Notes under the pieces: model-generated
The model's input: the letters and a program-made list of their open reading frames with translations, nothing else
Told to the model about the DNA's origin: nothing
Database searches by the model: none
Part shown: piece after piece, positions 38,073 through 53,246 of the stretch
How positions within the stretch are numbered: the stretch's first letter is position 1
Layout: the number at the start of each line of letters is the position of its first letter
From: Lachnospiraceae bacterium
GTDB lineage: Bacteria > Bacillota > Clostridia > Lachnospirales > Lachnospiraceae
Length of the DNA stretch: 64,000 bases
Direction of reading: 5' to 3'
NCBI GenBank assembly: GCA_045627905.1
Contig: JAZQOO010000006.1
Location: 6,301 to 70,300 of the forward strand
Made by a program: the position numbers and the translations under genes

Positions 38073-38804
38073 ATGAAATTAAACGAACTATTAATTAATC
38101 AGATGCTAACAGTACAGATTGTATTTGGAGAGCAAAAAATAGAGTTCTATTCTGATGTTGTTGATAAGGAAGGGACAGATGTGTTTATTACTCCATATAT
38201 TCACAATGCTGCTCCGCTAGAGCTGAATATCAATGGTGATAAAGGTGTTGTATGTAATCTTTATACAGATGATTCAATGTCAAATAGACGTATTTCATGG
38301 AAAGGCGTTGAACTTTTAACAGTAAGCAGAAATAATAATACTGTTTACTGCGTTAAAACTCATATGTTTAACAATATTTCAAATGTTGATGAAAGACGCC
38401 AGCATGAAAGAACTTTAGTGCAGGTAGTAGGAAAGGTTACAGACGAAAATCGTGGAGATGAACACAAAATTATCATTCATGATATTAGCGACAATGGAAT
38501 TTCATTTTATGCTAAAGATTCTTTTTCACCTGCATCTCAGAAGCTATTTATTAGTTTTACTGATAAGATTGACAAGAAAGAATTTGATATTCAGTTAGAT
38601 TGTTCTGTTTCAAGGACACAAAAAGAATATGGTCACAATATTATTGGATGCAGAATACTCAGAGAAAATAAAAACTATTTGTTATATGCAATGCTCAAGC
38701 ATCTGAAAGGAAAAATTGTTACTATAGTTAATGAGGGTGATTCATCTGTGACTGATACAAGAGCAGATGATACCGGAGAAACTGATAATAATCAGTCAGA
38801 ATAG
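38073..38804 (+). CDS. PilZ-domain protein (YcgR-like N-domain + PilZ), second copy in the window
   Basis: RxxxR (ERRQHERT) and D-x-S-x-x-G (HDISDNGISF) motifs. Confidence 0.65.
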   Translation: MKLNELLINQMLTVQIVFGEQKIEFYSDVVDKEGTDVFITPYIHNAAPLELNINGDKGVVCNLYTDDSMSNRRISWKGVELLTVSRNNNTVYCVKTHMFNNISNVDERRQHERTLVQVVGKVTDENRGDEHKIIIHDISDNGISFYAKDSFSPASQKLFISFTDKIDKKEFDIQLDCSVSRTQKEYGHNIIGCRILRENKNYLLYAMLKHLKGKIVTIVNEGDSSVTDTRADDTGETDNNQSE

Positions 38805-38847: not shown

Positions 38848-39612
38848 ATGGCTACAATAGTTTTGATTCATGGTGGTTGGAGTGGAAAATGGTGCTATCA
38901 ACATAACGTTGGGGCTATAGAAGCTGCAGGAAATAAAGTTATATGTTTGGATTTGCCTGGTCATGGTGATAATAATAGAGAATTAATTACTAGTGTTAAT
39001 TTAAAGTGTTATGTTGATTACATTGAGAAAGAACTTAGTAAAATAGAGGGCTCAGTAATACTAGTTGCACATTCAATGACAGGGATGGTAATAGCTCAGG
39101 TTGCTGAGGATATGCCAGACAAGGTTGAAAAGCTCGTGTATGCAGCTGCGTTCATGCCAAGTACAGATGGGCAGAGAATGATTGAGTTTATTGAAGGAGA
39201 TATATGGACTGGAGTAGGTAAAAATAGTCTCATAGAGCTACCAGATGGAACTGTCACAATGAATCCGTTGTACGCTAGAAATCTAGGCTTCAGATTTAGT
39301 GATGATGAGAAGTTTATGGAATGTCTTAAGTGTATGCAGAATGAAAATACAACAATGTGGTCGGAACCTGTTCATCTTACAGAAAAATACCACAATGTTC
39401 CAAAATACTACATTCATACGCTTAAGGACAATTGTCTATCGTACTGGATGCAGAGAAAGATGGTTCATGAAGAACCAGTTATTAAGCAATATTATTTAGA
39501 TACTGATCACTGCTGTATGATTAGTATGCCAGAGGAATTTTGCGATGCAATCATTGATGTTGCAAATGACAGATATCTGGCTGATGCTCTTGCATTTTTA
39601 AACAGTAAATAG
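38848..39612 (+). CDS. Alpha/beta-fold hydrolase (esterase-like)
   Basis: IVLIHGG oxyanion region, nucleophile elbow VAHSMTG, and a C-terminal D..H pair (DTDHC). Confidence 0.7.
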   Translation: MATIVLIHGGWSGKWCYQHNVGAIEAAGNKVICLDLPGHGDNNRELITSVNLKCYVDYIEKELSKIEGSVILVAHSMTGMVIAQVAEDMPDKVEKLVYAAAFMPSTDGQRMIEFIEGDIWTGVGKNSLIELPDGTVTMNPLYARNLGFRFSDDEKFMECLKCMQNENTTMWSEPVHLTEKYHNVPKYYIHTLKDNCLSYWMQRKMVHEEPVIKQYYLDTDHCCMISMPEEFCDAIIDVANDRYLADALAFLNSK

Positions 39613-39657: not shown

Positions 39658-39741
39658 GGAGGTAAAGTTTGAAAATAAATTTTCAAACTTGATTGATATT
39701 TCAATTAAACAAGCTGTTGAAATCATAGGAGGCAAGTTATG
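39658..39741 (+). repeat. Second copy of the flhF-flhG junction segment, forming the 5' region, RBS and start of the lipoprotein gene; embedded in an array of TTTCAA/TTGAAA half-sites
   Basis: 39658-39688 is identical to 11004-11034. 39713-39741 matches 11041-11069 at 25/29. Nearby is the 14-nt perfect palindrome tttcaaatttgaaa (about 39630-39643). Confidence 0.85.
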
Positions 39742-41019
39742 AAAAAAGCAAATGAAAAATTAACAAAGAAGGTAGCAGTAGCATTTTTAACAGCAGTTTT
39801 AGCATTAGGAATGCTAACAGGCTGTGGCAAAAAGGAAGAGACTGTTACAGAAGAACAGGAAATTAGTACAGAAAACGTTGAAACAGAAAACACAGGAAAA
39901 CAAGAGGAAACTACTGTAGTAGAGTCAGCGGAGGAAACGGTTACAACGCCATTTTTAGATGACCTTGAAAAGTATGACAGTATTATTTCTACTCTTACAA
40001 CTGAGCAGTATTATGCATTTGCACCTATAGGAGAGGATTATGATGCATTGCTTGTCACAGATGGTGTTTATGATAATGGTGACGGTAATATGGCTGCTAT
40101 TGATGCCAAGGTCTATGGATTTGGTAGTAATGGTGTGATTTATGAGGCAGGTTCTGTGTGGAGTGATGGAACAGCATATCCTCTTGCTGTATATGAAAAT
40201 TCTATTATGTTTGGTGGAAATCATCATATGTCAATGGCTTGTGTAAGAGATGGCTCAGTAATAATAGAAAAAGAGGCTGATGAAGTTTTCGATGAGCAGG
40301 GAAATGCAACGTACAGCTACAATGAAGGCAATATCGACGATATAAGAGAAGTTGAAGATAACAGTATTTTAACAGAGATGTATAAAACATACGAGAAGGC
40401 TATTGTAATCAATTTCTTTAAGGGTGAGGCAGAATTTACACCAGATGAAGAACTCGGTGATTACCCATCAAATAGCTTTGAGGAAAGGGTTGGAAAAACT
40501 TCTTTTGAATCATATGATGAAATAATAGGCTTACTTGAAGGTGACGAAGCTTATGCATTAGTAAATGTTAAGGGCTATGACGGAGAGGTTCTTTTAGTAA
40601 CAAACTATACATACGATGATTTATTAGGTCACATAGCAACAACAGAATGTACACCATATACTGTAAAGTCGAGTGGTGTATGTAGCGCAGATAGCGCTAT
40701 TGTTTCAGGAGGAACTGCAACACCTATTAAAATTGATAAGGATGGAGTGCTTTGTACTGCAACACATGTTTCTGTTGAAAAGAACTGTTATGGTACAAAC
40801 GGCACAGATGATGTTGCAATTATAGTTCTTGCAACAGTATATGCTGATGAGCTTGATGATAATGGAAATCCTAAGACAGTAGGTGGATTTATTAGAACAA
40901 AGAATTCTGTTGTTGATGATGATTCAAAGACGATTGAAAGTAACGATGCTGACACTTATAAGCAGCTATTTGATGATTATAACAATGCAGAGGAAATAAG
41001 CTTTACTAAAGCAAAATAG
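39739..41019 (+). CDS. Hypothetical lipoprotein
   Basis: Lipobox signal (LALGMLTGCGKK) and an acidic linker. No recognised domain. Confidence 0.5.
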   Translation: MKKANEKLTKKVAVAFLTAVLALGMLTGCGKKEETVTEEQEISTENVETENTGKQEETTVVESAEETVTTPFLDDLEKYDSIISTLTTEQYYAFAPIGEDYDALLVTDGVYDNGDGNMAAIDAKVYGFGSNGVIYEAGSVWSDGTAYPLAVYENSIMFGGNHHMSMACVRDGSVIIEKEADEVFDEQGNATYSYNEGNIDDIREVEDNSILTEMYKTYEKAIVINFFKGEAEFTPDEELGDYPSNSFEERVGKTSFESYDEIIGLLEGDEAYALVNVKGYDGEVLLVTNYTYDDLLGHIATTECTPYTVKSSGVCSADSAIVSGGTATPIKIDKDGVLCTATHVSVEKNCYGTNGTDDVAIIVLATVYADELDDNGNPKTVGGFIRTKNSVVDDDSKTIESNDADTYKQLFDDYNNAEEISFTKAK

Positions 41020-41030
41020 TTTAAATACTT

Positions 41031-41570
41031 ATGGCAATACTTATAGATTTATTTCTCACATTTCTTAAGATTGGAGCTTTTACATTCGGCGGTGGCTATG
41101 CGATGATACCACTTATCCAAAGAGAGATTGTGGAGAATAAAAAATGGCTTACGAATAAAGACATATCTGATGTCATTGCGATAGCAGAGACAACACCTGG
41201 ACCGATTGCGATAAATGCTGCAACCTTTGTAGGATATAAGACAAATGGAATTAAAGGAGCAATCGCGTCTACTATAGGTGTTGTGTTGCCATCGTTTGTG
41301 ATTATTGTACTTATATCAGCGGGTTTTTATAAATATATGAGCGTAAAGCTTGTAACAAAAGCCTTTTTTGGTGTGCGTGTAGCTGTTATTGTGCTTATGT
41401 GCAAAGCATTTATTACAATGTTAAAGCAGTGTCCTAGGAATGTTGTTTCATATTGTATAGCAATTTTAGCATTAGTTTTGACTTTTTTATTTCATACAAA
41501 TGTTTTGTTGATTATTGTCGCAGCAATATTTATAGGTATTATTTATAAACAAATAAAAAGGGCGCTATAG
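41031..41570 (+). CDS. Chromate-transporter (CHR) family protein, half-size subunit 1
   Basis: FLKIGAFTFGGGYAMIPL and ETTPGPIAIN motifs, typical of short-chain CHR pairs. Confidence 0.8.
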   Translation: MAILIDLFLTFLKIGAFTFGGGYAMIPLIQREIVENKKWLTNKDISDVIAIAETTPGPIAINAATFVGYKTNGIKGAIASTIGVVLPSFVIIVLISAGFYKYMSVKLVTKAFFGVRVAVIVLMCKAFITMLKQCPRNVVSYCIAILALVLTFLFHTNVLLIIVAAIFIGIIYKQIKRAL

Positions 41571-41571
41571 A

Positions 41572-42111
41572 ATGATATATGTTAAGCTGTTTCTAACATT
41601 TTTTAATATAGGGCTATTTACCTTTGGCGGTGGATATGCAATGATTCCGCTTATTGAACAGGAAGTGTTAAACAATGGATGGATAAGTACAGAGGAGCTT
41701 ATTGATTTTATAGCAATAAGCGAAAGTACGCCAGGGCCACTAGCAGTTAATATATCTACCTTTGTAGGAATGAAGATGGCAGGTATCATGGGGGCTTTTT
41801 GTGCAACATTAGGAGTTATTTTGCCATCATTTATTATTATACTGATTGTTGCAGGTATATTTGAAAGCTTTCAGAAGAGCAGGTTTGTTAAAGGCGCGAT
41901 GATAGGGCTAAAGGGTGTCGTTGTAGGTCTTATAGGTTCATCAATAATGTCTACTGGTCTTGTTGTTTTCGGGAATGCTGTAAAAACATTAGATATTAAA
42001 AAAATGCTATGTATGGCTATTGTATTTGCTGTAGTGTCTATTGGACTTGTAAAAAAGATACATCCAGTTATTCTTATAGCTGTGTCAGCAGTTATAGGGA
42101 TAATACTGTAG
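41572..42111 (+). CDS. Chromate-transporter (CHR) family protein, half-size subunit 2
   Basis: FFNIGLFTFGGGYAMIPL and ESTPGPLAVN motifs. Adjacent paralogue of the previous gene. Confidence 0.8.
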   Translation: MIYVKLFLTFFNIGLFTFGGGYAMIPLIEQEVLNNGWISTEELIDFIAISESTPGPLAVNISTFVGMKMAGIMGAFCATLGVILPSFIIILIVAGIFESFQKSRFVKGAMIGLKGVVVGLIGSSIMSTGLVVFGNAVKTLDIKKMLCMAIVFAVVSIGLVKKIHPVILIAVSAVIGIIL

Positions 42112-42257: not shown

Positions 42258-43532
42258 ATGGTTAAAGAAGAAATGAAAGAATTGTTAAAGTTGGCTTGGA
42301 AAGATGTTTTCAAGACAGAAGAAGCAGAGGATGATGCAGACTTTTTTGAAGCAGGCGGAGATTCGATAATGGCAGTACAGCTTTCTGCATGGCTTCTTCA
42401 GAAAGGTGTTAAGCTTGAACTTCAGGATGTATTTGCTACATCAAAGCTTGGAGATATGGTTGAAAAGCTTACAGAAACAACACCATTTTATGTACCAAAT
42501 GCACTTCTTACAAAAGAAATTGCAGCTAATGAAATGCAGGGAATGTTTGGAGGCATGTTTGGAGGTATGATGCCAAATAATGCACCTACTAATGAACAGG
42601 AACAGGCAGATGCTAGTAAGCTTCCAGAACAGCAGGTTTGCAGTACACCATTTACAGGAAATCAGCAGATGGATGGTCAGGCTGCATCACAGCAGGTATG
42701 TACACCAGATAATAGTCAGCAGGCATGTTCATCAATGAACAATCAGGAAATATGCAATCAGCAGATATGCTCATCACAGCAGATGTGTATGCCAATGAGC
42801 AGCCAGCAGGTATGTATGCCACAGCAGATGTGTATGCCAATGGGAAGTCAGCAGGTATGCATGCCACAGCAGATATGTATGCCAATGAATAGTCAGCAGG
42901 TATGTATGCCAATGGGAAGTCAGCAGGTATGTATGCCACAGCAGGTATGCATGCCAATGGGAAACCAGCAGATGTGCATGCCAATGGGAAGTCAGCAGGT
43001 ATGTATGCCAATGAATAATCAGCAGGTATGCATGCCAATGGGAAGTCAGCAGGTATGTATGCCAATGAATAATCAGCAGGTATGCATGCCAATGGGAAAC
43101 CAGCAGATGTGTATGCCAATGGGAAATCAGCAGATGTGTATGCCAATGGGAAATCAACAGATGTGCATGCCAATGGGAGGAAATGGCAATTTTTTTTTAG
43201 ATAAAGATAACGGATTGCCACCACAGTTGCAGAAGTATGTTTCAAAGGAAGTGGACGCTCCTATAGAAAATCCAAATATTATTAAAATAGAAAAGGCAAA
43301 GGTTTCAAAGCCTACAGTTCCAGCACCACAGGCACTTGAAATTGTTATGAATACATTAATGAATTCTTATGATAAGGAAAAGGATTTATTTGAGCAGGGT
43401 CTTACATCTTTAGATACAGTGAAAATGGTAACAAGATGTGGAGAAAACGGTTACAGTCTTTCACTTAAGGATATATACAAGGAACGTACATTTGATGCAA
43501 TTGTTGATTGTATGGTACCTGGAGAAGAATAA
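42258..43532 (+). CDS. Di-carrier protein: PCP/ACP domain, about 21 single-Cys QQxC(MPMxx) repeats, then a second carrier-like domain
   Basis: N-terminal Ppant motif DADFFEAGGDSIMAVQL. Repeat region at aa 125-308. C-terminal carrier-like motif DLFEQGLTSLDTVKMV...LSLKDIY..RTFDAIVD. GGAGAA RBS. Confidence 0.7.
   Translation: MVKEEMKELLKLAWKDVFKTEEAEDDADFFEAGGDSIMAVQLSAWLLQKGVKLELQDVFATSKLGDMVEKLTETTPFYVPNALLTKEIAANEMQGMFGGMFGGMMPNNAPTNEQEQADASKLPEQQVCSTPFTGNQQMDGQAASQQVCTPDNSQQACSSMNNQEICNQQICSSQQMCMPMSSQQVCMPQQMCMPMGSQQVCMPQQICMPMNSQQVCMPMGSQQVCMPQQVCMPMGNQQMCMPMGSQQVCMPMNNQQVCMPMGSQQVCMPMNNQQVCMPMGNQQMCMPMGNQQMCMPMGNQQMCMPMGGNGNFFLDKDNGLPPQLQKYVSKEVDAPIENPNIIKIEKAKVSKPTVPAPQALEIVMNTLMNSYDKEKDLFEQGLTSLDTVKMVTRCGENGYSLSLKDIYKERTFDAIVDCMVPGEE
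42630..43180 (+). repeat. In-frame tandem array of 27-nt and 18-nt units encoding QQ(V/M/I)CMPM(G/N/S)(S/N) and QQxCMP; degenerate at the 5' end and near-identical from about 42774
   Basis: Units such as cagcaggtatgtatgccaatgggaagt recur almost verbatim. About 21 QQxC units, each with exactly one Cys codon. Confidence 0.9.
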
Positions 43533-43544
43533 TAGGTAATTTTC

Positions 43545-43587
43545 ATCTGCCCCCTTCATTTCGAAAGCCGATATGTAGGGGGTAGAT
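43545..43587 (+). terminator. Candidate terminator/attenuator hairpin 13 nt after the di-carrier gene
   Basis: atctgccccct (43545-43555) pairs with agggggtagat (43577-43587): 11 bp including one G-U, with a 21-nt loop. The following TTGTTAT is only moderately U-rich. Confidence 0.4.
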
Positions 43588-43772
43588 TTGTTATACATGA
43601 TAACGCAAATGGTTCGCAGAGCGTGCCATTTCGTTATATAGACCAACGATGAAATCGTTGGTAGCCCGCCGTGCCATAGTATCGCATCGAAGATGTGATA
43701 CATTTGGAGGCATCAGAGAAATGACGTAAGGCATTTCTTCATTATTAACAGACCAACGATGGGAAATATAAT
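43588..43772 (+). promoter_or_regulatory. Structured leader with mutually exclusive pairings around the RBS of the C-domain gene
   Basis: The 11-nt gaccaacgatg occurs at 43641-43651 and 43751-43761. atcgttggt (43654-43662) is complementary to both. Further hairpins: aaatgg/ccattt (43607-43630) and agaaatg/catttct (43716-43737). Confidence 0.4.
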
Positions 43773-45995
43773 ATGAACAATAATTTTAATAATAATTTTT
43801 TTCAAATGATGAATATGAATTGGGGATTCCCGGGATTTCCTAATAATACTCAGGGTGGAAATATTAATCAAAATATGCTTCCAAATTGGATGCAAATGCA
43901 GTTTCCACAGTGGCAAAATACAAACGTTACACCAAACGTCAGGAGTGTGTCAGCACAGGTTGTAAAACAGGCTTCACAACCTAAACAGACGAATAATTCG
44001 CAGCAAAGTCCTGCACGTCAAATGCAGCCTGTTCAGCCTGCAAAGTCTGTTCAGTCTGTTCAGCCTGTTCAGCCTGTAAAGCCTACAGCAGACACCGAAA
44101 AAAAGAAAAGAACTGTTGAGATAGAGAATAAATATACTGTTAAAAATATATCGGATGATGATTTATACGAAATCTTTACGCAATATGGAAATAATATTGA
44201 GGATATATATGAGCTATCACCGGGACAGAAATGGATGTTTGAAAATGGTCATGAAGTCCATAACACACAGATGCTCCAGCTTGTAATTGAGGCAGAGTTA
44301 AAGCTTGACCCAGTTGCTTTTAGACATCAGTATGACAGTGTATGCAATAGACTTGAAAACCTTAGAAATGCTATTTGCTATACAAATCTTTCAAAGCCAT
44401 ACAGAGTTCTGCTTAAAAACAGGGAACAGCAGATGTACTTTGGTGTAATAGACAGTATAAGTGCAGATGCAACTGATGAAGAAAAAAAGAAGTTAATAGA
44501 TAAATTCTTAGCGGCCGACAGAGAGCGAGGCTTTGATATTGAAGGAGAACCTTTGATACGAGTTAAAGTGCTCAGGATACATGATACAGATAAATATATA
44601 TTTATTATATCTCAGCCTCATATCAATTCTGATGGTACAAGCGTTGGAGTTTTAATGAATGATTTGTTTATTGACTACGCATTGAAATTTGAAGGTATCG
44701 ATATTCCAGTCTGTGATAACTCATACACAAAGTATGCTGAATTTCTAGAAAAAGTAGATATAAAAAAAGAAATGGACTATTGGAAATCGTTATATTCGGA
44801 TATGCCAGAGCTTAAACAGTTGCCGGGAAGAAGAGTTTCAAGCAGAATATATCATCTTGGAAGCTATAAAGCAGAACTGAAAAAGTCTTCAATAGACGGT
44901 CTTAAGAAGCTTCAGTCCAGTACAAAGGCTACATTTTTTAATATATTACAGACAGCATGGGCAATAAGTCTTAATAAGTTACAAAAATCTGATGAGGTAT
45001 GCTTTGGAACTATTACATCAGGGCGTGATACGAGTGTTCAGGGAAGCATGATGCTTTCAGGAGAATTTGCTAATGTAGTGCCTATGAGAGTGAAGCTTGA
45101 TGATGATGAAACCTTTAAAGAGAGTGTAAGTAAATTACAAGCTTTATTTAACGAAAATAATAAGCATGCATATTGTACACCAAAGGAAATATGTAGTTCA
45201 CTTAATAGAAGTACACCATTGTTTGACCATCTGATTAATTATCATAATTTTGCAATAGCACCTGAAGATAATATGACAAAAGGATGTTTTGGCAATTTTA
45301 ATATAATAGGCGGTCAGGTATATGTTAGTCCAACGGAGGACCTAAACGTTGTATTTAGAACCGAGGGTGGACAGATGATGTGTTACATGGATTATAACCA
45401 GAATGTTTATCCTGAAAAAGCTGTTGTTGAATATGTAAAATATTTCAATAGAGTGATAGAAACAATTGCTAAGAAGGGTGTTGATATTAAAATATCTGAA
45501 ATTCCTAGACCGGATGATAGCGTGTTTGAAAAAATAGCAGGAATGTATGTAATGAACAATATTCAGATTGCTGAATTCCTTAAAGAAACTGACATTTTTT
45601 CAAACTTTGATTATAAGGAACTACTTGATTTGGCATCAAAATTCAGAGTTGATTATTATCATGACAGCCAGGTTATTGTTGAAGAACATTCCCAAAATGA
45701 TCGTTTCATGTTTGTTTTAGATGGAATGGTAGTTACAACGAAATGTAAAAATAATGCGTGGGATAATGTCGTTGAGGTTGTAAAAAATGGAAAAATCCTC
45801 ATTAATGGACTAGATAAGGATGGAGCTTCAGAATTTGGATTTGTCTCGATGTCAGACAATACAAAAATCCTGTCAATATCATATGATGAGATGATAGAAA
45901 TTATGAGTACTTATAAAGAGGTCTCTATTGCTGCTACTAAAGAAGTGTTAGACAAATATGTTAAATATGTAAAATTGTGGCTTAATGCAGAATAG
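43773..45995 (+). CDS. Stand-alone NRPS condensation (C) domain protein with a Q/N/M-rich N-terminus and a C-terminal cNMP-binding-like domain
   Basis: C-domain core IFIISQPHINSDGTSVGVL (xHxxxDG). The C-terminal about 140 aa (FLKETDIFSNFDYKELLDLASKFRVDYYHDSQVIVEEHSQNDRFMFVLDGMVV...) fits the cNMP-binding/CRP effector-domain pattern. Confidence 0.65.
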   Translation: MNNNFNNNFFQMMNMNWGFPGFPNNTQGGNINQNMLPNWMQMQFPQWQNTNVTPNVRSVSAQVVKQASQPKQTNNSQQSPARQMQPVQPAKSVQSVQPVQPVKPTADTEKKKRTVEIENKYTVKNISDDDLYEIFTQYGNNIEDIYELSPGQKWMFENGHEVHNTQMLQLVIEAELKLDPVAFRHQYDSVCNRLENLRNAICYTNLSKPYRVLLKNREQQMYFGVIDSISADATDEEKKKLIDKFLAADRERGFDIEGEPLIRVKVLRIHDTDKYIFIISQPHINSDGTSVGVLMNDLFIDYALKFEGIDIPVCDNSYTKYAEFLEKVDIKKEMDYWKSLYSDMPELKQLPGRRVSSRIYHLGSYKAELKKSSIDGLKKLQSSTKATFFNILQTAWAISLNKLQKSDEVCFGTITSGRDTSVQGSMMLSGEFANVVPMRVKLDDDETFKESVSKLQALFNENNKHAYCTPKEICSSLNRSTPLFDHLINYHNFAIAPEDNMTKGCFGNFNIIGGQVYVSPTEDLNVVFRTEGGQMMCYMDYNQNVYPEKAVVEYVKYFNRVIETIAKKGVDIKISEIPRPDDSVFEKIAGMYVMNNIQIAEFLKETDIFSNFDYKELLDLASKFRVDYYHDSQVIVEEHSQNDRFMFVLDGMVVTTKCKNNAWDNVVEVVKNGKILINGLDKDGASEFGFVSMSDNTKILSISYDEMIEIMSTYKEVSIAATKEVLDKYVKYVKLWLNAE

Positions 45996-46032: not shown

Positions 46033-49000
46033 TTGAAAAAGGATATATCGATTGTAACACCATTTCATAATACAGAGATGAGTTTTTTTGAAAAAACAGT
46101 GTCCTCTGTTGTAGCTCAGTCACTTAATAAAGACAGCTTTGAGTGGGTTATTATTTTTCATAATTGTGCTGATAACTATATTGATGATGCAAAGGCTATT
46201 ATTGATAGAGACTGCAAGGATTTATGTACTAAGCTTTATTACCTTAAAGATGACACAAAAAGTCCTTCAGAACCTAGAAATGTTGGAATAAGAAATGCGG
46301 AAGGAAAATATTTATATTTTCTCGATTCTGACGATTTGGTTGATAAGGATTTTCTGTTAAAAGCGATTGAAATAGCAGAAACAGATTTGGCTGACATCGT
46401 ATTTGCAAAATCTGTTTCTGTGTCATTAAATGAGAATCTTGTTAAACTTCCCGTTCCGTTATTATTTTATGGTAGCGATGGAAAGCTTGTGATAGATAAT
46501 GAACGGTATAAATTAACAAAAGATGTAAGTGGTGCTAAGAAGGTTATTAGAAAAAATAGAGAGATATTAGGAAGATTTTTGTATGGTGCTCCAAATTATC
46601 TGGCAACTAAACTTATAAAAAGAGAGTTGTTAATTGATAATAATATCTTCTTTGATAAAAAATATCGAGTTATTGAGGATGTTCTATTTAACGTTTTAAC
46701 TATAGCTCGTGCTAAAAAGCTTGTCGTATTAACGGATGTTCAGGCATATACGTATTATCAGCGTGAGGGTTCACAGATTCAGTCACTATCAGAAAAAGGT
46801 GGTTTCACTAAAGAACTGTACTTAGAGCCACTTAAGGAAATAGCTGAAACCTGTGAAAAAGAAGATATTGATTACAATATTTTCCTTTGGAGTATGTTTG
46901 AAATGTTTGGAACGATGGTTCTAAAGGGTACATTGTCAAACGAAGAAAAAGAGGCGCTCATAATAGGAATGTCGCCATATAAGGAGAAGCTTAAAAAGAT
47001 ACCATATCTAGGAGAAAACGGCGCAAAGAATGCAGAGAGTATGCGTTTGTTTGCAAATATATTTATGCGCAATAATGCCTATGAGCATACAAATCAAGCA
47101 ATTACTGTCATTGATATGATAGAAAACACAAGAAATTTAAGTGGTAAAGCTGTTTGTATGGAAAATGGTGAAATAAGCTTTGAAGAGCTTCATGCTAAGT
47201 CCGACAAGGTTGCAGTATTCCTTCTGGAAAAGGGATACAAAAGGGGAAAAAGAATCGGACTTTGTATGAGAAAGAGCATTGATGCATATATTGCATTGTA
47301 TGGAATTATTAAAACAGGTGCTACGCTTGTTGTTATTTCTGGCTCTAACAGTAGTGAACGAAATGATTTTATAAAAAAAGACGCAAATATCGACTATTTC
47401 ATAGATGATGAGTGCTTTAATAATGTGCTTACTGAATGTGAACATATCTATAGTGAATATGAACCTATTAAAGTAAAGGGGACTGATGACTTTGTAATTA
47501 TTTATACGTCTGGTTCTGAGGGAAAGCCAAAAGGTGTCAGATTATCCAATATAAATGTTACAAATATGAATCTTTTACTTAAGGGGAATGAAAAAGCAAT
47601 ATATCAGTATTCAAATTGCAATACGTATCTTATGGCTATGGATATTGATTTTTTATTCGGGTTCCTCGTTTCATTAGAAGCAATGTTTTTTGGAAAAACA
47701 TTATATGTGTTAAAAGATGTATCAGATATAAATAGTGAATTTGCCAAAAAAGTTTTATTAGATGATAGTAATAAAATAAACATATCCTGTGTTCCTTCTG
47801 CAAGTGCATTTTGGTTTACAGACGGTAATATAAGTAAGCTACTAAAAAATGTAAGTATTGTTGCATTTGGTGGTGAGGGTGTCAAAAGGGAACTGATGGA
47901 TAGCGCTAAAAACGCACTTAAAGATGCCGCTATTTTTCAGGGATACGCAACTACAGAAACGGGTCCTGCATGTTATGAGCAGTATACGGGTGATGTGATA
48001 ACGGCGGGAGTACCTCAGGCGGATGTTATTGTATCTATTGTTGATGAAGATATTAATCCAGTTCCATTAGGCGAAAAAGGCAGAGTATGTATTACTGGTT
48101 ACAGAGTTTCTAAAGGATATTTAAATATTGATTCAGATGATTTTCTGCCAGCAAGAGATAATGTAAACACATTTATTTCAAAGGATGAAGGTTTTATTAA
48201 CGAAGAAGGAAGGCTTTGTATTACTGGTAGACTTGACAGAATGCAAAAGGTACATGGAGTTCGTATCGAACCTGCAGAGGTTGAAAATGCATTCCTTGAA
48301 TACAGTGGGGTAAATGAAGCAGCAGCAAAAATCATTGAAAAATCAGGTAAAAACAGTATATATATGTTTTACTGCTCAGAACGACAGTTAAATGAGTATG
48401 AAATCAGAAGCTTTTTATCAAAAAAGATACCATATTACATGATTCCTGATGGGTTTATTCGTATTAATAAAATGCCCCTCACAAATAGAGGTAAGCTTGA
48501 TTATAACAGCCTAAATCCAGCGGAGTATTTAGAAAATCAGGTTGAGAGTACTAAAAACTGTGGCAATGAGACAATAATAAGCAAATGCTTTAAGGAACTC
48601 CTAAATATTGAAAATGTAAATGTGGACTCTAATTTCTTTGCATTAGGTGGAGATTCACTTCTTGCTATAAAGCTTGTTGTTTTATTAGAACAGCATAATA
48701 TTAAAATAAAAGTAAAAGATATATTTGCTTTTCCTACACCGAGCTTACTTATGCAGTTTGTAGACAGTAATGAAGCAAGTACAGATAACAGTAAGGATAC
48801 CTTTGACTATTCGATAGCTGAAAAAAAGCGAATAATGGAAGGACTTGAAAAAATAGCTGTAAATGGAACTATTACTGCAAACAGAGGCGGACACAATGAG
48901 GAAATAAGGCTAGAGGATGTGCGTGACGCATATGCTGTTCATGGAACAATAAAGAACTATTTTGACATGCAGACTGAATTCAGAGAGGCGTTCAGATATA

Positions 49001-50142
49001 CTATTAGAATTCAGTTTGAAACAACAAAGAAAATAGATGAAGAATATATTACGAAACGGGTCAGACTTTTACAAAAGAAACATCCTGTGTTAAATTCTTA
49101 TTTTACGTATATAGATGGAGTAAAGAGACCCGAGTTCATTCAGCTTATATTAAATAAAAAGAGTATTCCAGTGTTCTACGAGGATTTATCTGATTTAAAT
49201 ATAGATGAAGGTGAAAAGCATCGAACAAGTCTATGGGAAAAGCTGGATACATTAAATGAATTTTTTACAGTTGCTTCGCTTAAAATATCAGAAGACCATT
49301 ATACAGTACTTGTGCGAATTAATCATGTTGTTGCGGACGCACTAAGCAGTAATATTTTGTTAAATGAGCTTGTATCAGACGAGCAGTTAATAGATACTTG
49401 CGAGGATAGATTTATTACGTGCCGAAATACAATGTTTAATGAAAAACAGGATGTCGAAGCAATAAAAAGCTTTTTTGATGATTATCTTAAGGATGCCAAG
49501 CTCTCAAGGGTTTATAAAGGTTCAGAAATATTGAGAAGCAGCAGAGAGATAGTTAATCGTAAAATAAAGATATCCTATGAAAAGTATTGTGAACTTTTAG
49601 ATGCTTGTAAGTGTAGAGGAATAATATTTAGTAATTATGTTCAGTACATATTTGGTAAAAGCCTTTTAAAGGCAATGAATGAGCGTGCGCTGATATTTTT
49701 AAGTATGTTTGCAGGAAGAAATAAAAATAACGTAAATACAGTTGACAATTATTTCAACATGTTACCAATATGTATCAGAGATGATATGAACATTTACAAA
49801 TTTCAGGAGAACTTAATTAAGCTATCTGAGCTATATTATCTCACAATTGATGAGCTAGGTGCAATTTTGAGAAAACCGTTCCATTTACTTGGTTGTGCAG
49901 ATGGAATAAATTCTAATCTGATAGATTCGGTGCTTGAAAGAGATGGGGTATATGATGCAAAACAAATTGTTTGGTCAGAGCTCAGAGGAAACAGGGCATA
50001 TATTGAGGACGGAAGCTTTGTAATTGAGATTTCAAATTACACGGATGAGCTGACAGATGTTATATATAATGAAATCGCAGGATATATGGAAGAAATGATA
50101 TGTAATGTTGAAGAATATTTAAAGGAGTTGGACAATGAGTAA
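46033..50142 (+). CDS. Multidomain NRPS-like protein: GT2 glycosyltransferase, adenylation, carrier, condensation
   Basis: GT2: ISIVTPFHN...EPRNVGI...YLYFLDSDD. A: IIYTSGSEGKPKGV, GYATTETG, GRLDRMQKVHGVRIEPAEVE, NRGKLD. T: FFALGGDSLLAIKL. C: RINHVVADALS. TTG start with AGGAGG RBS. Confidence 0.8.
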   Translation: MKKDISIVTPFHNTEMSFFEKTVSSVVAQSLNKDSFEWVIIFHNCADNYIDDAKAIIDRDCKDLCTKLYYLKDDTKSPSEPRNVGIRNAEGKYLYFLDSDDLVDKDFLLKAIEIAETDLADIVFAKSVSVSLNENLVKLPVPLLFYGSDGKLVIDNERYKLTKDVSGAKKVIRKNREILGRFLYGAPNYLATKLIKRELLIDNNIFFDKKYRVIEDVLFNVLTIARAKKLVVLTDVQAYTYYQREGSQIQSLSEKGGFTKELYLEPLKEIAETCEKEDIDYNIFLWSMFEMFGTMVLKGTLSNEEKEALIIGMSPYKEKLKKIPYLGENGAKNAESMRLFANIFMRNNAYEHTNQAITVIDMIENTRNLSGKAVCMENGEISFEELHAKSDKVAVFLLEKGYKRGKRIGLCMRKSIDAYIALYGIIKTGATLVVISGSNSSERNDFIKKDANIDYFIDDECFNNVLTECEHIYSEYEPIKVKGTDDFVIIYTSGSEGKPKGVRLSNINVTNMNLLLKGNEKAIYQYSNCNTYLMAMDIDFLFGFLVSLEAMFFGKTLYVLKDVSDINSEFAKKVLLDDSNKINISCVPSASAFWFTDGNISKLLKNVSIVAFGGEGVKRELMDSAKNALKDAAIFQGYATTETGPACYEQYTGDVITAGVPQADVIVSIVDEDINPVPLGEKGRVCITGYRVSKGYLNIDSDDFLPARDNVNTFISKDEGFINEEGRLCITGRLDRMQKVHGVRIEPAEVENAFLEYSGVNEAAAKIIEKSGKNSIYMFYCSERQLNEYEIRSFLSKKIPYYMIPDGFIRINKMPLTNRGKLDYNSLNPAEYLENQVESTKNCGNETIISKCFKELLNIENVNVDSNFFALGGDSLLAIKLVVLLEQHNIKIKVKDIFAFPTPSLLMQFVDSNEASTDNSKDTFDYSIAEKKRIMEGLEKIAVNGTITANRGGHNEEIRLEDVRDAYAVHGTIKNYFDMQTEFREAFRYTIRIQFETTKKIDEEYITKRVRLLQKKHPVLNSYFTYIDGVKRPEFIQLILNKKSIPVFYEDLSDLNIDEGEKHRTSLWEKLDTLNEFFTVASLKISEDHYTVLVRINHVVADALSSNILLNELVSDEQLIDTCEDRFITCRNTMFNEKQDVEAIKSFFDDYLKDAKLSRVYKGSEILRSSREIVNRKIKISYEKYCELLDACKCRGIIFSNYVQYIFGKSLLKAMNERALIFLSMFAGRNKNNVNTVDNYFNMLPICIRDDMNIYKFQENLIKLSELYYLTIDELGAILRKPFHLLGCADGINSNLIDSVLERDGVYDAKQIVWSELRGNRAYIEDGSFVIEISNYTDELTDVIYNEIAGYMEEMICNVEEYLKELDNE

Positions 50143-50473
50143 AGAAGAAATGAAGGAATTTTTAGTTGAGGCATGGAAGGAAGTATTTCAGGTAGAGGAA
50201 GTATCAGACGATGCAGATTTCTTTGAGGCTGGTGGAGATTCAATAAATGCAGTACAGTTAACTGCCTGGTTAGTTCAAAAGGGTGTTAAGCTTGATCTTG
50301 GAGATATTTTTATCTATTCAACTGTAGGTGAATTAAGTGAACATCTTACAGAGACAACACCTGTATATGTTCCAGAAGCACTCCTTACAATGGATGTTGC
50401 ATCAAAAGAAATGAGAGAACAGTTATTCTCAAATGGTATGCCGGGTGCAGATTTACCATTTCTTAAGAAATAA
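50135..50473 (+). CDS. Stand-alone carrier protein (PCP/ACP), paralogue of the N-terminus of the 42258 protein
   Basis: DADFFEAGGDSINAVQL Ppant motif. By eye, roughly two-thirds identical to aa 1-95 of the di-carrier protein, including the post-domain tail LTETTP.YVP.ALLT. Overlaps the upstream stop by 8 nt. Confidence 0.8.
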   Translation: MSKEEMKEFLVEAWKEVFQVEEVSDDADFFEAGGDSINAVQLTAWLVQKGVKLDLGDIFIYSTVGELSEHLTETTPVYVPEALLTMDVASKEMREQLFSNGMPGADLPFLKK

Positions 50474-50495
50474 ATAAACGCTATTAAGGATTAAT

Positions 50496-51713
50496 ATGAG
50501 ATACGACGATACAAACTTTCTTGAAGTGCGTGAAAAACTGAATACGTTAGAAACAGTTCTTGATATGCTTAAAGGTTCGGTAGATGACAAATCATTTAGT
50601 GCAAAACTAAGACGCTACCAAGGTATAATGGTAATGTGTAATACGCTCTTATTTGATGTTGCAAATATCGATGACTATGATGATTTATTTGATTCTTCGC
50701 TAAATGAAAAACGAACCAATAATGAGGTTTTATCAAGATGTGAAGATTATTACAATTTTATAAAAAATATTTATTTAGAAAGAAAAGAATTACCCCTGTC
50801 AATTGACAGAAACTTTAAAAAAATATGCGATCAGTCAAAATATGTCTCATATGATAATTTAGTTAAGCTTGTAAAAGAGAGATTACTAAAAAAAGACGAA
50901 AACATGCTTTCTAATTATAAAAAGTTTTTTGATAAATTTGAGCATTTTTGGGGAAAGCTAGATGTTAAAGCTGAGAATTTTGAAGTAATAACTAAAAGAA
51001 TGGAAATTCTTAAGGCTAATATAGAAGATTTTATTTCGGTTTATGAAGAGTTAGCAGATAACAGGTCAAAGGCCGTTCTTACAGGATATTTGCATAACTG
51101 GCTGACTATGTCAGAGGATGATATTTTTGACATGGGTGAACGAATATTCTTTGATTATGCTGATTTTGATATATGCAAATGTGACAGCAATGAGATTATC
51201 GCGGACATTGGTGCATATAACGGCGATTCGGCACTAGGATATATTTATTCATATGGAAGCTATAAAAAAATGTATTGCTACGAAATAACGCCATCTTCGT
51301 TTGAAAAGCTTAGCGATAATCTAAAGGGATACGAAAATATTATCTTATGTAGAAAGGGAGTAGGAAGCAAATACTCAGAGACTAACCTCGATATAAAAGA
51401 TGATGCGTATTCAAATGATATTACAAGTAAGGGTGATTTAAAAACAGAAATAGTTACTCTTGATGAGGATATAAAGGATAAACTTACTCTTATCAAAATG
51501 GATATAGAGGGTGCTGAAAAAGATGCTTTAAAAGGTTGTGTAAATCACATAAAAAATGAAAAGCCAAAGCTTTTGATTTGTGTTTATCACGGAAATACAG
51601 ATATATTTGAAATTCCAAAGCTTATCAAGGAAATGAGGAGTGACTACAAATTTTATTTAAGAAGCAGCGGCTGGCAGTATGCACCATCAGAGATTGTACT
51701 GTACGCATTGTAA
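50496..51713 (+). CDS. FkbM-family SAM-dependent methyltransferase with an N-terminal extension of about 220 aa of unknown function
   Basis: C-terminal half has FkbM-type motifs (IIADIGAYNGDSA...LIKMDIEGAEKDALKG...KPKLLICVYH). The N-terminal half is helical with no recognised domain. Confidence 0.7.
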   Translation: MRYDDTNFLEVREKLNTLETVLDMLKGSVDDKSFSAKLRRYQGIMVMCNTLLFDVANIDDYDDLFDSSLNEKRTNNEVLSRCEDYYNFIKNIYLERKELPLSIDRNFKKICDQSKYVSYDNLVKLVKERLLKKDENMLSNYKKFFDKFEHFWGKLDVKAENFEVITKRMEILKANIEDFISVYEELADNRSKAVLTGYLHNWLTMSEDDIFDMGERIFFDYADFDICKCDSNEIIADIGAYNGDSALGYIYSYGSYKKMYCYEITPSSFEKLSDNLKGYENIILCRKGVGSKYSETNLDIKDDAYSNDITSKGDLKTEIVTLDEDIKDKLTLIKMDIEGAEKDALKGCVNHIKNEKPKLLICVYHGNTDIFEIPKLIKEMRSDYKFYLRSSGWQYAPSEIVLYAL

Positions 51714-51740
51714 CATAGGTATTTAAAGAAAGAGGATTGA

Positions 51741-53243: not shown

Positions 53244-53246
53244 TAA

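Follow-up and report, generated by a model that had tools for sequence, protein, structure and literature searches.

The CNB (cyclic-nucleotide-binding) domains of the CRP/FNR sensors, including C. glutamicum GlxR (3r6s), M. tuberculosis CRP (4a2u) and E. coli CRP, are the top structural matches, long C-helix included, of the C-terminal domain described here. At the level of sequence, its best matches are CNB-D of P. falciparum PKG (5dyk) and CNB-B of human PKG I and II. The only well-studied CNB domain fused to an acyl-transfer enzyme is that of Pat (MtPat, Rv0998, and MsPat, MSMEG_5458; PMC8556138), a cAMP-binding N-terminal domain with a canonical cassette. The catalytic domain of Pat is a GNAT, not a condensation domain of the CAT superfamily. 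CNB-fold modules also occur within secondary-metabolite machinery, namely the family 2B encapsulin insert (NF041163) and the 'bacteriocin-type transport-associated protein' (TIGR03896). Their hosts are a capsid shell and a small stand-alone protein beside ABC exporters, and an NRPS catalytic domain is part of neither. The closest sequence matches of the condensation (C) domain, BacC E-COM-C (9rde), SrfA-C (2vsq/8f7f) and TycB1 (9bfd), at 2e-53, 9e-40 and 6e-35, respectively, come after epimerases, bear COM docking helices and have A-T(-TE) in cis. No NRPS catalytic domain is known to possess a sensor domain of its own, and the only accessory control known is exerted by partners such as MbtH-like proteins.

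In the window (the whole 64,000-nt stretch of the Lachnospiraceae contig that was analysed), one gene joins a C domain to a CNB-fold domain. It lies at 43773..45995 on the forward strand and encodes, from an ATG start, a protein of 740 aa, for which the ORF list, Pfam and an AF2 model give the order head, COM-like helix, C domain, linker helix and CNB-fold domain. The three-part anatomy recorded in the first-pass annotation (head, C domain and C-terminal sensor-like region) was correct. The assigned start carries the caveat that only a weak GGGAA Shine-Dalgarno-like stretch is found upstream; the N-terminal extensions of homologs are similar in length to that of the window protein.

The C + CNB fusion is real and is neither an assembly nor a frameshift artefact, because the relative is one continuous ORF in 32 related loci, which also answers the suggestion that the gene might turn out to be two ORFs. 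The C + CNB arrangement is kept in 31 of these loci. The fusion occurs as one continuous ORF in about 30 genomes/species, mostly of rumen/gut Clostridia, plus Coriobacteriia and Sporomusa ovata (Negativicutes), and the mean column identity of the CNB domain across Clostridia, Coriobacteriia and Negativicutes is 41%. When a representative library was searched with the full-length profile, multi-C mega-synthetases dominated the matches, and the number of family clusters at 50% identity is given as a lower bound of at least ~10. Full-text literature searches gave no paper on the joining of condensation and CNB domains in one protein, in keeping with the earlier remark that no description of such a fusion was known.

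The C domain (aa 142-568; 44196..45476, forward strand) was assigned from PF00668, Foldseek and PDB sequence matches. PF00668 matched residues 143-568 with E=2.4e-58 and 198.4 bits, above the curated cutoff of 30.6, and Foldseek related the two-lobe V-shaped fold to the SrfA-C C domain (E=1e-36, TM(target) 0.78-0.79). McyB and PvdL-C3 follow BacC E-COM-C, SrfA-C and TycB1 among the best PDB sequence matches. The PHINSDG core reported at first was located at residues 282-288 (P282-H283-I-N-S-D287-G288; 44616..44636, forward strand) and is a single-His variant of HHxxxDG. All 26 homologs share Q281, H283, N285, D287 and G288 (QPHxNxDG); the first His of HHxxxDG is Pro in every one of them, and the second His, Asp and Gly do not vary. 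With the catalytic His, Asp and Gly all present, the C domain is predicted to be catalytically competent. It shares with BacC, SrfA-C and TycB1 the V-shaped fold, the catalytic His-xxx-Asp-Gly and an N-terminal helix aligned with the BacC COM, but differs from them in the Pro at the first His and in the CNB-fold domain that comes next. In a comparison with the DCL subtype (C domains that accept D-configured donors), made with PDB matches rather than a reference phylogeny, every top match is a C domain that follows an epimerase, and the BacC COM is the counterpart of the helix, but neither an epimerase (E) domain nor a donor COM helix was found in the window cluster.

Composition, pLDDT and TRF define the head (aa 1-116; 43773..44120, forward strand) as disordered and of low complexity, with AF2 pLDDT <50 over its whole length. 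Residues 1-50 include no charged residues and consist of N (30%), Q (14%), M (14%), F (12%) and W (6%) to a degree that is not seen in the remainder of the protein, where each of these accounts for 0.8-6.6%. The 3-aa VQP/VQS repeats noted earlier are present, with units at residues 87, 93, 96 and 99 (span aa 87-101) and a 9-nt tandem repeat of 5.9 copies beneath them at 44025-44077 (TRF). The description of this N-terminus as 'prion-like' holds for composition only, the head sequence being variable from homolog to homolog. Before the C domain lies a conserved COM-like helix (aa 123-141, KNISDDDLYEIFTQYGNNI; 44139..44195, forward strand), defined by AF2 and the family alignment. It aligns with residues 458-476 of BacC in the COM (communication-mediating) region, and is modelled as helical at residues 128-141.

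After the C domain, AF2 models show a long linker that forms the N-terminal helix of the CNB module (aa 582-605; 45516..45587, forward strand), and the CNB-fold (CRP-like) domain itself was placed at 45588..45992 (forward strand) by PF00027, comparison of the family profile with the PDB, AF2 and Foldseek. This domain of ~160 aa consists of helices, an 8-stranded β-barrel at aa ~614-703, and B/C helices at 704-737. In the window protein PF00027 matched residues 628-714 over profile positions 3-89 of 89 with E=0.0057, its 17.0 bits falling below the curated cutoff of 27.5, and 25 of 26 homologs were matched at E<=0.01 (best 1.4e-10). Hence, of the two HMMER searches that had been proposed, the one with PF00668 was clear, and that with PF00027 succeeded across the family but not for the window protein alone. 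The family profile matched solved PKG, PKA-R and CRP domains at ~1e-12 to 1e-16 (chains matched via a single CNB domain), the value for CRP/FNR-family domains being ~1e-12 and the best sequence-level matches being PKG and PKA domains. The AF2 model of the C-terminal domain has a pLDDT of 88.9, and Foldseek aligned it with GlxR and M. tuberculosis CRP with TM 0.73-0.77 and rmsd 2.0-2.3 Å over ~141 residues. With PKG included, TM is 0.63-0.77, and the match comprises the barrel together with the N-terminal and B/C helices. The PF00027 match is therefore marginal for the window copy alone, and the CNB homology is solid because of the family profile and AF2/Foldseek. As judged by profiles and models, the C-terminal domain is a true homolog of CNB domains of the CRP/PKG type, and the CRP/cNMP-binding fold ascribed at first to a C-terminal region of about 140 aa is borne out, including by the AlphaFold and Foldseek comparison that the first-pass annotation had recommended.

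Among curated families, the CNB domain is matched most often by NF041163 (18 of 19 members) and TIGR03896 (5 of 19), and NF058543, the NCBIfam Pat model, gives weak CNB-level matches in 2 of 19. The type III GNAT (Pat) architecture does not apply: here a PF00668 domain, not a GNAT, is the catalytic part and precedes the CNB domain, the cassette of which is degenerate. A search with the CNB-only alignment against a set of 5.8 billion proteins returned zero matches at E<=1e-5 and is uninformative about other architectures. Unlike CRP/FNR proteins, in which a helix-turn-helix DNA-binding domain is present, the window protein carries its CNB domain C-terminal to an enzyme, ends at residue 740, three residues past the C-helix, and gave no match to any helix-turn-helix profile. 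The hydrophobic pattern of the C-helix is broken, with R/K at the position of CRP L124. Because the heptad pattern is interrupted, CRP-style coiled-coil dimerisation via the C-helix is not evident and is not claimed.

The equivalent of the phosphate-binding cassette (PBC) is degenerate and spans aa 675-692 (ILINGLDKDGASEFGFVS; 45795..45848, forward strand). Its register was taken from a pairwise HMMER alignment to PfPKG, and columns were tabulated over 43 sequences. In the window copy, a deletion and Ile replace the Gly-Glu pair, A685-S686 replace the PBC Arg-Thr and E668 replaces the β5 Arg, so that the Gly-Glu plus Arg-Thr/Ser signature is absent; likewise, the CRP cAMP contacts G71, E72, R82 and S83 are not kept. 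The PBC loop is also the least confident part of the CNB model (pLDDT 73 over residues 101-110 of the C-terminal model). Thus, every canonical cNMP contact is gone and the window copy is a poor candidate for a sensor. Typical relatives have [KR][TS] at the PBC, their 'RT' or 'KT' aligning on the PKG Arg-Thr and their 'LR' on the PKG β5 Leu-Arg. At the PBC Arg position the family has Arg in 13 and Lys in 20 of 43 sequences (basic in 33), the PKG-type β5 position is basic (K/R) in 29, and both are basic in 25. Hence, the first-pass observation that the PBC Arg is absent is true of this protein (A685) but not family-wide. The ribose-binding pair is lost throughout, with Gly in 4/43 and Glu in 0/43. 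The family therefore differs from PKG in the lack of the cassette Gly-Glu, the window copy in the additional lack of the Arg residues, and the effector is not a kinase.

Conservation in the family is concentrated in a flap and a tail Trp rather than in the ribose/phosphate cassette. The β4-β5 hairpin A662-W663-D-N-V666 (45756..45770, forward strand) corresponds to the family consensus G-W-x-N-P, in which G is found in 41, W in 42, N in 30 and P in 31 of 43 sequences, and the window copy deviates at the G and P. The C-terminal tail L-W736-L-N-A-E (45975..45992, forward strand), recognised in the alignment of homologs, carries the family signature LWxNA, the Trp of which is nearly invariant (>=90% of 26 homologs). 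At the family-specific positions A662, V666, M646 and S703 the window copy is the most divergent member; G651, W663 and W736 are retained.

The gene immediately upstream (42258..43532, forward strand) encodes a partner with two carrier domains, T - repeat linker - T', delineated by Pfam, TRF and a neighbourhood survey. T is a PP-binding domain at aa 10-69, and T' scores 22.1 bits against a cutoff of 20.8. The linker has the form QQ[VMI]C[MT]P..., encoded by a 27-nt repeat at 42867-43178 (TRF). The conserved linker repeat of such partners is Q-hydrophobic-C-[T/D/M]-P, with Q at -2 in 116 and P at +2 in 112 of 119 instances. The partner also has a conserved P[IV]ENPN[VI] stretch. A partner homolog adjoins the C-CNB gene on its upstream side in most loci with enough flank; among the 32 related loci, the T-T' partner is present in 23 and A-containing NRPS proteins in 24. 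Between the two genes of the window lies a highly structured spacer of 240 nt (43533..43772, forward strand; RNA folding, MFE -87.8 kcal/mol, z=-7.2), which includes the direct repeat AGACCAACGATG twice and matched no family in an Rfam search.

Downstream on the forward strand, Pfam assigns a 1369-aa GT2 - A - T - C protein (46033..50142), an FkbM-type methyltransferase (50496-51713), a stand-alone A (51741-53243) and two A-T-C proteins (53247-56153 and 56150-59104), the second of which is the last protein of the window assembly line. The line is split at every C|A junction, and the cluster is of the glycosyltransferase-rich, peptide-antibiotic type of gut/rumen Clostridia. The terminal domains of the A-T-C proteins are divergent C domains that match the C parts of BacC, TycB, McyB and PvdL. 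Their assignment as epimerases, which would have left the C-CNB enzyme as the sole condensation catalyst, was ruled out, as the matches are to C parts and not to E. The C domain of the C-CNB protein had been called free-standing; it has no A domain in cis, but the term needs qualifying because the enzyme travels with a two-carrier protein and split A-T-C modules.

Given this setting, we tentatively prefer the explanation that the protein is a trans-acting condensation enzyme in which the CRP-fold domain is a ligand-blind adaptor or coupling module, i.e. a pseudo-receptor. The N-terminal COM-like helix would dock the T-T' carrier partner as donor, and the downstream (GT2-)A-T would provide the acceptor, the GT2-A-T-C protein being the probable acceptor module. 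Donor and acceptor are assigned here from gene order and a single fusion protein, a homolog (P0024, seen on 3 independent contigs) in which the C domain runs straight into the GT2 domain of the next gene and the CNB module is absent. This fusion indicates that the C fold does not depend on the CNB module and that the module lies where the enzyme meets the next protein. The CNB-fold domain would occupy the place where a cis A domain would come after the C domain, and may hold or position the enzyme relative to its partners or oligomerise it, through contacts made by the family-specific β4-β5 'GWxNP' flap and the 'LWxNA' tail. In the window protein it would not sense cAMP or cGMP.

The evidence against the adaptor explanation includes the interrupted C-helix pattern and the residues that most relatives retain. 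Basic residues at the PBC, at β5 and at both together, in the proportions given above, resemble a functional anion/nucleotide site and favour a sensor role for the family. In addition, enzyme-fused CNB domains are usually regulatory, and in MtPat and MsPat cAMP relieves autoinhibition (PMC8556138), which counts against an adaptor and provides a precedent for CNB-regulated acyl-transfer enzymes. The CNB domain might accordingly be a true sensor of a ligand other than cAMP or cGMP (another nucleotide, CoA or a phosphorylated pathway intermediate) that allosterically switches the C domain. The alignment of the relatives' 'RT'/'KT' and 'LR' on the PKG Arg-Thr and β5 Leu-Arg agrees with this, and the nearly invariant tail Trp could serve as a lid. 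Capping aromatic residues are known in PKA and PKG. We nevertheless consider a true sensor unlikely: the window protein has neither the two basic residues nor the Gly-Glu pair, which is lost family-wide; Lys is commoner than Arg at the PBC position, and the replacement of Arg by Lys is generally highly damaging to cNMP binding; and no nucleotide cyclase or phosphodiesterase is among the recurrent neighbours of the related loci. The control of condensation by a ligand-sensing, allosteric domain, as envisaged in the first-pass annotation, is thus not supported for the window copy, which has none of the canonical contacts, but is more plausible for typical relatives with [KR][TS] and the β5 Leu-Arg. 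In these relatives, which are the majority, the module may have kept a response to some anionic ligand that resembles a nucleotide, and a switch operated by a non-cNMP ligand is possible.

A more elaborate version, which we regard as doubtful when taken as a whole, makes the C-CNB proteins ligand-gated condensation enzymes. In typical members, a nucleotide-like or phosphorylated metabolite, bound in a remodelled pocket formed by the β5 Arg, the PBC [KR][TS] and the tail Trp as lid, would switch a trans-acting C domain that serves the multivalent two-carrier scaffold. The Q-phi-C-[TDM]-P repeats would be sites of tethering or modification, e.g. thioester formation or S-/O-glycosylation by the GT2 enzymes of the cluster, and the window copy would be derived and constitutive. 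If true, NRPS catalytic domains under allosteric regulation would have their first example here, and the carrier scaffold would be of a novel type.

The repeats may instead be what the CNB pocket binds. KCNH channel CNB-homology domains carry an 'intrinsic ligand', and by analogy a peptide segment of the partner (Q-phi-C-[TDM]-P or P[IV]ENPN[VI]) might occupy the pocket and tether the enzyme to a multivalent scaffold. Co-occurrence with the repeat-bearing partner, the strong conservation of Q and P in the repeats, the degeneracy of the family pocket for nucleotides and the location of the motif in the enzyme's own N-terminal head in one homolog (L023) are all consistent with such tethering. 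It appears improbable, however; P0024, which has no CNB module, still lies, on a contig truncated at the 5' end, beside the gene for a homolog of the T' (C-terminal) portion of the partner.

The loss of the module from P0024 and the status of the window copy as the most degenerate member could also mean that the CNB-fold domain of the window protein is a remnant of evolution that no longer has a function. There is little to recommend this, as the domain is still a confidently folded unit, retains G651, W663 and W736, and is maintained in all but one of the related loci, across three classes. A canonical cAMP or cGMP receptor that places peptide synthesis under second-messenger control is hardly credible in spite of the CNB homology, the best matches to PKG and PKA domains and the PBC Arg kept in 13 of 43 relatives, given the absence of the ribose-binding Gly-Glu from essentially all members and, in the window copy, the Ala-Ser in place of Arg-Thr, the Glu in place of the β5 Arg, the Pfam score below the cutoff and the PBC loop as the part of the domain modelled with least confidence.

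The C-CNB fusion may represent the first direct post-translational control of peptide-bond formation or, alternatively, a further case in which a split assembly line has taken over a sensor fold for docking or as an adaptor. Both outcomes would be of use in the engineering of NRPS, by way of split modules or of condensation switched by a ligand, and would help to decode this glycosyltransferase-rich family of Clostridia clusters. The question is testable because two cultured hosts exist, Sporomusa ovata DSM 2662 and Oribacterium sp. NK2B42.

The LWxNA tail was also considered as a generic docking peptide at the C|A junctions of all NRPS proteins of the clusters. This was ruled out, as the tail is specific to the C-CNB proteins, essentially all of which have it, and is missing from the remaining NRPS proteins encoded there. 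A lone LNAE look-alike tail ('KLNAEN'), which has no Trp, ends the last A-T-C protein of the window.

The C-CNB protein of the window, a condensation domain followed by a C-terminal cyclic-nucleotide-binding (CNB)-fold domain, is encoded by an ORF at 43773..45995 on the forward strand (740 aa, ATG start), and the first-pass annotation had placed it at exactly these coordinates. Its unusual head holds up in terms of composition: by count, residues 1-50 include no charged residue and are rich in Asn (30%), Gln (14%), Met (14%), Phe (12%) and Trp (6%), and four VQP/VQS units at residues 87-101 are encoded by a 9-nt tandem repeat (44025-44077). Residues 1-116 have pLDDT values below 50 (AlphaFold2, 26-sequence alignment). 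The Shine-Dalgarno-like stretch upstream of the ATG is weak (GGGAA); despite this, N-terminal extensions of comparable length are present in homologs.

PF00668 is matched by residues 143-568 (E=2.4e-58), and the His, Asp and Gly of the active-site motif P-H283-I-N-S-D287-G288 are invariant across 26 homologs. Foldseek superimposes the model on the condensation domain of SrfA-C (E=1e-36, TM(target) 0.78). Profile and fold confirm the predicted condensation domain with a PHINSDG core; this identity is unambiguous, and C-CNB belongs to the condensation-domain family. Among solved structures, the domain is closest to BacC E-COM-C (2e-53), SrfA-C, TycB1, McyB and PvdL-C3, and each of these is a C domain that follows an epimerase. 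The alignment with BacC starts within the conserved pre-C helix of C-CNB (KNISDDDLYEIFTQYG versus KGISLDQLEEIKLKYKG), which is the communication-mediating (COM) region. Judged by its motifs, C-CNB is a free-standing condensation domain that appears catalytically equipped and carries a predicted docking-type N-terminal helix.

The window protein alone scores 17 bits (E=0.0057) with PF00027, below the cutoff of 27.5, yet spans the whole profile, and on its own it finds PKA-RI-alpha at 4e-4. PF00027 is matched by 25 of 26 family members (best 1.4e-10). When a profile was made from the C-terminal ~166 residues of 19 members, it matched the solved CNB domains of PKG, PKA-R, CRP, GlxR and Mtb CRP; against the PDB, matches to single CNB domains reach ~1e-12 to 1e-16 and those to multi-domain chains up to 1e-30. 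The AlphaFold2 model of the isolated C-terminal domain (pLDDT 88.9, pTM 0.81) superimposes on GlxR and Mtb CRP (TM 0.73-0.77, rmsd 2.0-2.3 A, ~141 columns); PKG, PKA and HCN domains come next. Given these three independent lines, the CNB assignment is firm, and the CRP/cNMP-binding barrel proposed earlier is upheld. The module consists of a long N-helix (residues 582-605), a beta-barrel (residues ~614-703) and B/C helices (residues 704-737). The protein ends right after the latter; hence it has no DNA-binding domain. When the modules of the 19 members were compared with curated families, the family 2B encapsulin insert was the most frequent match (18/19), and FtrB (12/19), CRP (8/19), the bacteriocin-transport-associated CNB protein TIGR03896 (5/19) and Pat (2/19) were also found. 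A bona fide CNB-fold domain occupies the place where a cis A domain would follow the C domain. Homology and fold put it in the CNB superfamily, but it does not have the phosphate-binding cassette (PBC) that defines such domains.

At the PBC, the loop of E. coli CRP is one residue longer than that of the C-CNB family. The register was set by pairwise HMMER alignment of P0006, a typical relative, to Plasmodium falciparum PKG ('EET-RT-SNMVS' with 'DEP-RT-ASIIS' at the PBC, and 'P-LR-VL' with 'R-LR-TL') and was tabulated over 43 unique sequences. The position of the PBC Arg is occupied by Arg in 13, Lys in 20 and other residues in 10 sequences, with [KR][TS] in 19/43. On beta5, 29/43 have Arg or Lys, and both sites are basic in 25/43. 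The ribose-binding Gly-Glu pair is essentially lost across the family (Gly 4/43, Glu 0/43). In the window copy, Ala685-Ser686 stand at the PBC, beta5 carries Glu668 and the Gly position is deleted; hence the reported absence of the PBC Arg holds for this protein but does not extend to the family. The main rival to the reading favoured below generalises the allosteric control of condensation suggested in the first pass, in that a non-cNMP ligand, probably anionic or nucleotide-like, would gate condensation. It fits the typical relatives better than the window copy and is considered rather unlikely.

Conservation in the family is highest in the beta4-beta5 hairpin G-W-x-N-P (G 41/43, W 42/43) and, at the C-terminus, in an L-W-x-N-A tail. 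The allosteric conduit of CRP is made up of the beta4-beta5 flap and the hinge, where the C-helix ends. Judged from the alignment, the Trp of the tail would lie about two helical turns past the base-contacting residues of CRP, near its hinge. We tentatively prefer the reading that the CNB module of the window protein is a ligand-blind adaptor or coupling element acting through the conserved flap and tail. The window copy departs from the consensus at A662, V666, M646, S703 and K715 (G, P, P, P and P in the family); that the domain is a relic without function is nonetheless improbable. The tail was also considered as a docking tail common to the NRPS proteins of the clusters, and this was rejected: essentially every C-CNB protein has it, whereas the other NRPS proteins of these clusters do not, the lone look-alike (LNAE) lacking the Trp.

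The partner gene (42258-43532, forward strand) encodes an N-terminal PP-binding domain (Pfam), a repeat linker and a C-terminal PP-binding domain, which passes the Pfam cutoff of 20.8 in three species (22.1, 38.4 and 24.5 bits). The linker DNA (42690-43178, forward strand) has a 27-nt period, with units such as QQVCMPMGS in the window. Its motif, Q-hydrophobic-C-[T/D/M]-P, is more than plain low complexity: of 119 linker cysteines in 17 partner proteins, 116 have Gln at -2, 117 a hydrophobic residue at -1, 111 T/D/M at +1 and 112 Pro at +2. There are 1 to ~21 copies in these proteins (~30 by eye in locus L016), and the motif is kept from Sporomusa to Lachnospiraceae. It resembles the sulfatase CxPxR motif only partially, having no Arg, and could be a site of modification, tethering or binding. 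In a Butyrivibrio MAG (L023:1868-4138), the disordered head of C-CNB is itself made of QQLC[TA]P repeats like those of partner linkers elsewhere, which suggests that head and linker are functionally related. A CNB pocket that binds peptide, and so tethers C-CNB to the repeats of its partner, is a further reading of low probability.

Clustering of all ORFs of 32 loci gave a core in which C-CNB (32) co-occurs with A-domain NRPS proteins (24) and the two-carrier scaffold (23), the latter directly upstream of C-CNB in most loci with enough flank. The association of C-CNB with the scaffold and with split A-T-C modules is taken to be obligatory. In the window, the NRPS proteins (46033-59104) are GT2-A-T-C, A-T-C and A-T-C plus a stand-alone A, the GT2 glycosyltransferase domain being fused N-terminally to the first A domain. 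As each multidomain protein ends in a C domain, every C|A junction of the assembly line is a break between proteins. The four C-type domains are all single-His (PHINSDG, NHVVADA, SHVCADG and DHRVVDG); the terminal domains of the A-T-C proteins were considered as epimerases, but are divergent condensation domains. No TE domain was found in the window genes scanned. Accessory genes that recur encode glycosyltransferases (GT2, GT8, GT1/28-like), an FkbM-type methyltransferase, a PPTase and a MatE-HATPase_c_2 fusion. No nucleotide cyclase or phosphodiesterase is among the recurrent neighbours in the 32 loci. A canonical cAMP/cGMP sensor is very unlikely. Upstream of the cluster lie genes for a PilZ-domain protein (38073-38804), an alpha/beta hydrolase (38848-39612), a 426-aa ORF without a Pfam match (39739-41019) and a split pair of the chromate-transporter family (41031-41570 and 41572-42111). 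These are window-only singletons with no homolog in 31 related loci (L001-L030, L039), and hence are probably outside the conserved system.

For the favoured adaptor, the COM-like helix of C-CNB would dock the carrier partner as donor, and C-CNB would condense onto the downstream (GT2-)A-T as acceptor, with the CNB-fold module at the junction to the next protein. This placement is supported by gene order and by P0024 (L026:315-3155, Sarcina MAG, 946 aa), in which the C domain runs straight into a GT2 domain and the CNB module is missing. That GT2 domain is homologous to the N-terminus of the window gene downstream of C-CNB. The C-GT2 form was seen on three independent contigs and thus is not a single misassembly.

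The same architecture was found in 26 clusters (28-36% identity) of a 5.8-billion protein set, most already carrying precomputed PF00668 and PF00027 matches and none a source-given protein name. In a representative library, whose search was dominated by mega-synthetases so that the count is a lower bound, at least 10 separate clusters at 50% identity (600-740 aa) matched the complete profile without a break. When one genome per species was scanned, the full-length fusion turned up in ~30, among them rumen and gut Lachnospiraceae, Ruminococcus, Oribacterium sp. NK2B42, Blautia, Butyrivibrio, Christensenella and Eubacterium, three Coriobacteriia, and the cultured Negativicute Sporomusa ovata DSM 2662. 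The window (GC 30-40%) has its best-matching neighbours in L029, an uncultured Lachnospiraceae MAG; both features point to one of the Clostridia living in gut or rumen.

C-CNB has no HTH and hence is not a CRP/FNR regulator; nor is it a Pat-type enzyme, as catalytic fold and domain order differ. MtPat/MsPat is a CNB-controlled acyl-transfer enzyme and is the best functional analogy (PMC8556138). Full-text literature searches found no paper describing a condensation domain fused to a CNB domain, in agreement with the first pass, which was aware of no description; the architecture is visible so far only as automatic Pfam matches. Such a fusion would surprise an NRPS specialist and is testable in two cultured hosts.

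A ~600-aa protein in which a MatE-type membrane domain is joined to HATPase_c_2, a histidine-kinase-like ATPase domain of the anti-sigma/serine-kinase type, recurs in 6 loci and is absent from the window. It lies directly downstream of C-CNB in four (L001:2882-4675, L005:3135-4886, L012:10532-12394 and L015:11977-13767) of the five listed, the fifth being L003:11975-13738.

The 240-nt spacer between partner and C-CNB (43533-43772) is strongly structured (MFE -87.8 kcal/mol, z=-7.2, with 0/200 shuffles folding as well), and Rfam gave no match. It includes a direct repeat, AGACCAACGATG, at 43640 and 43750, a hairpin, ACCAACGAT-GAA-ATCGTTGGT, and GGAGG with a two-codon mini-ORF behind it. In L008, L013, L018, L014 and L011, the spacers at this position likewise fold strongly (z -3 to -8.6) but show no sequence relationship.
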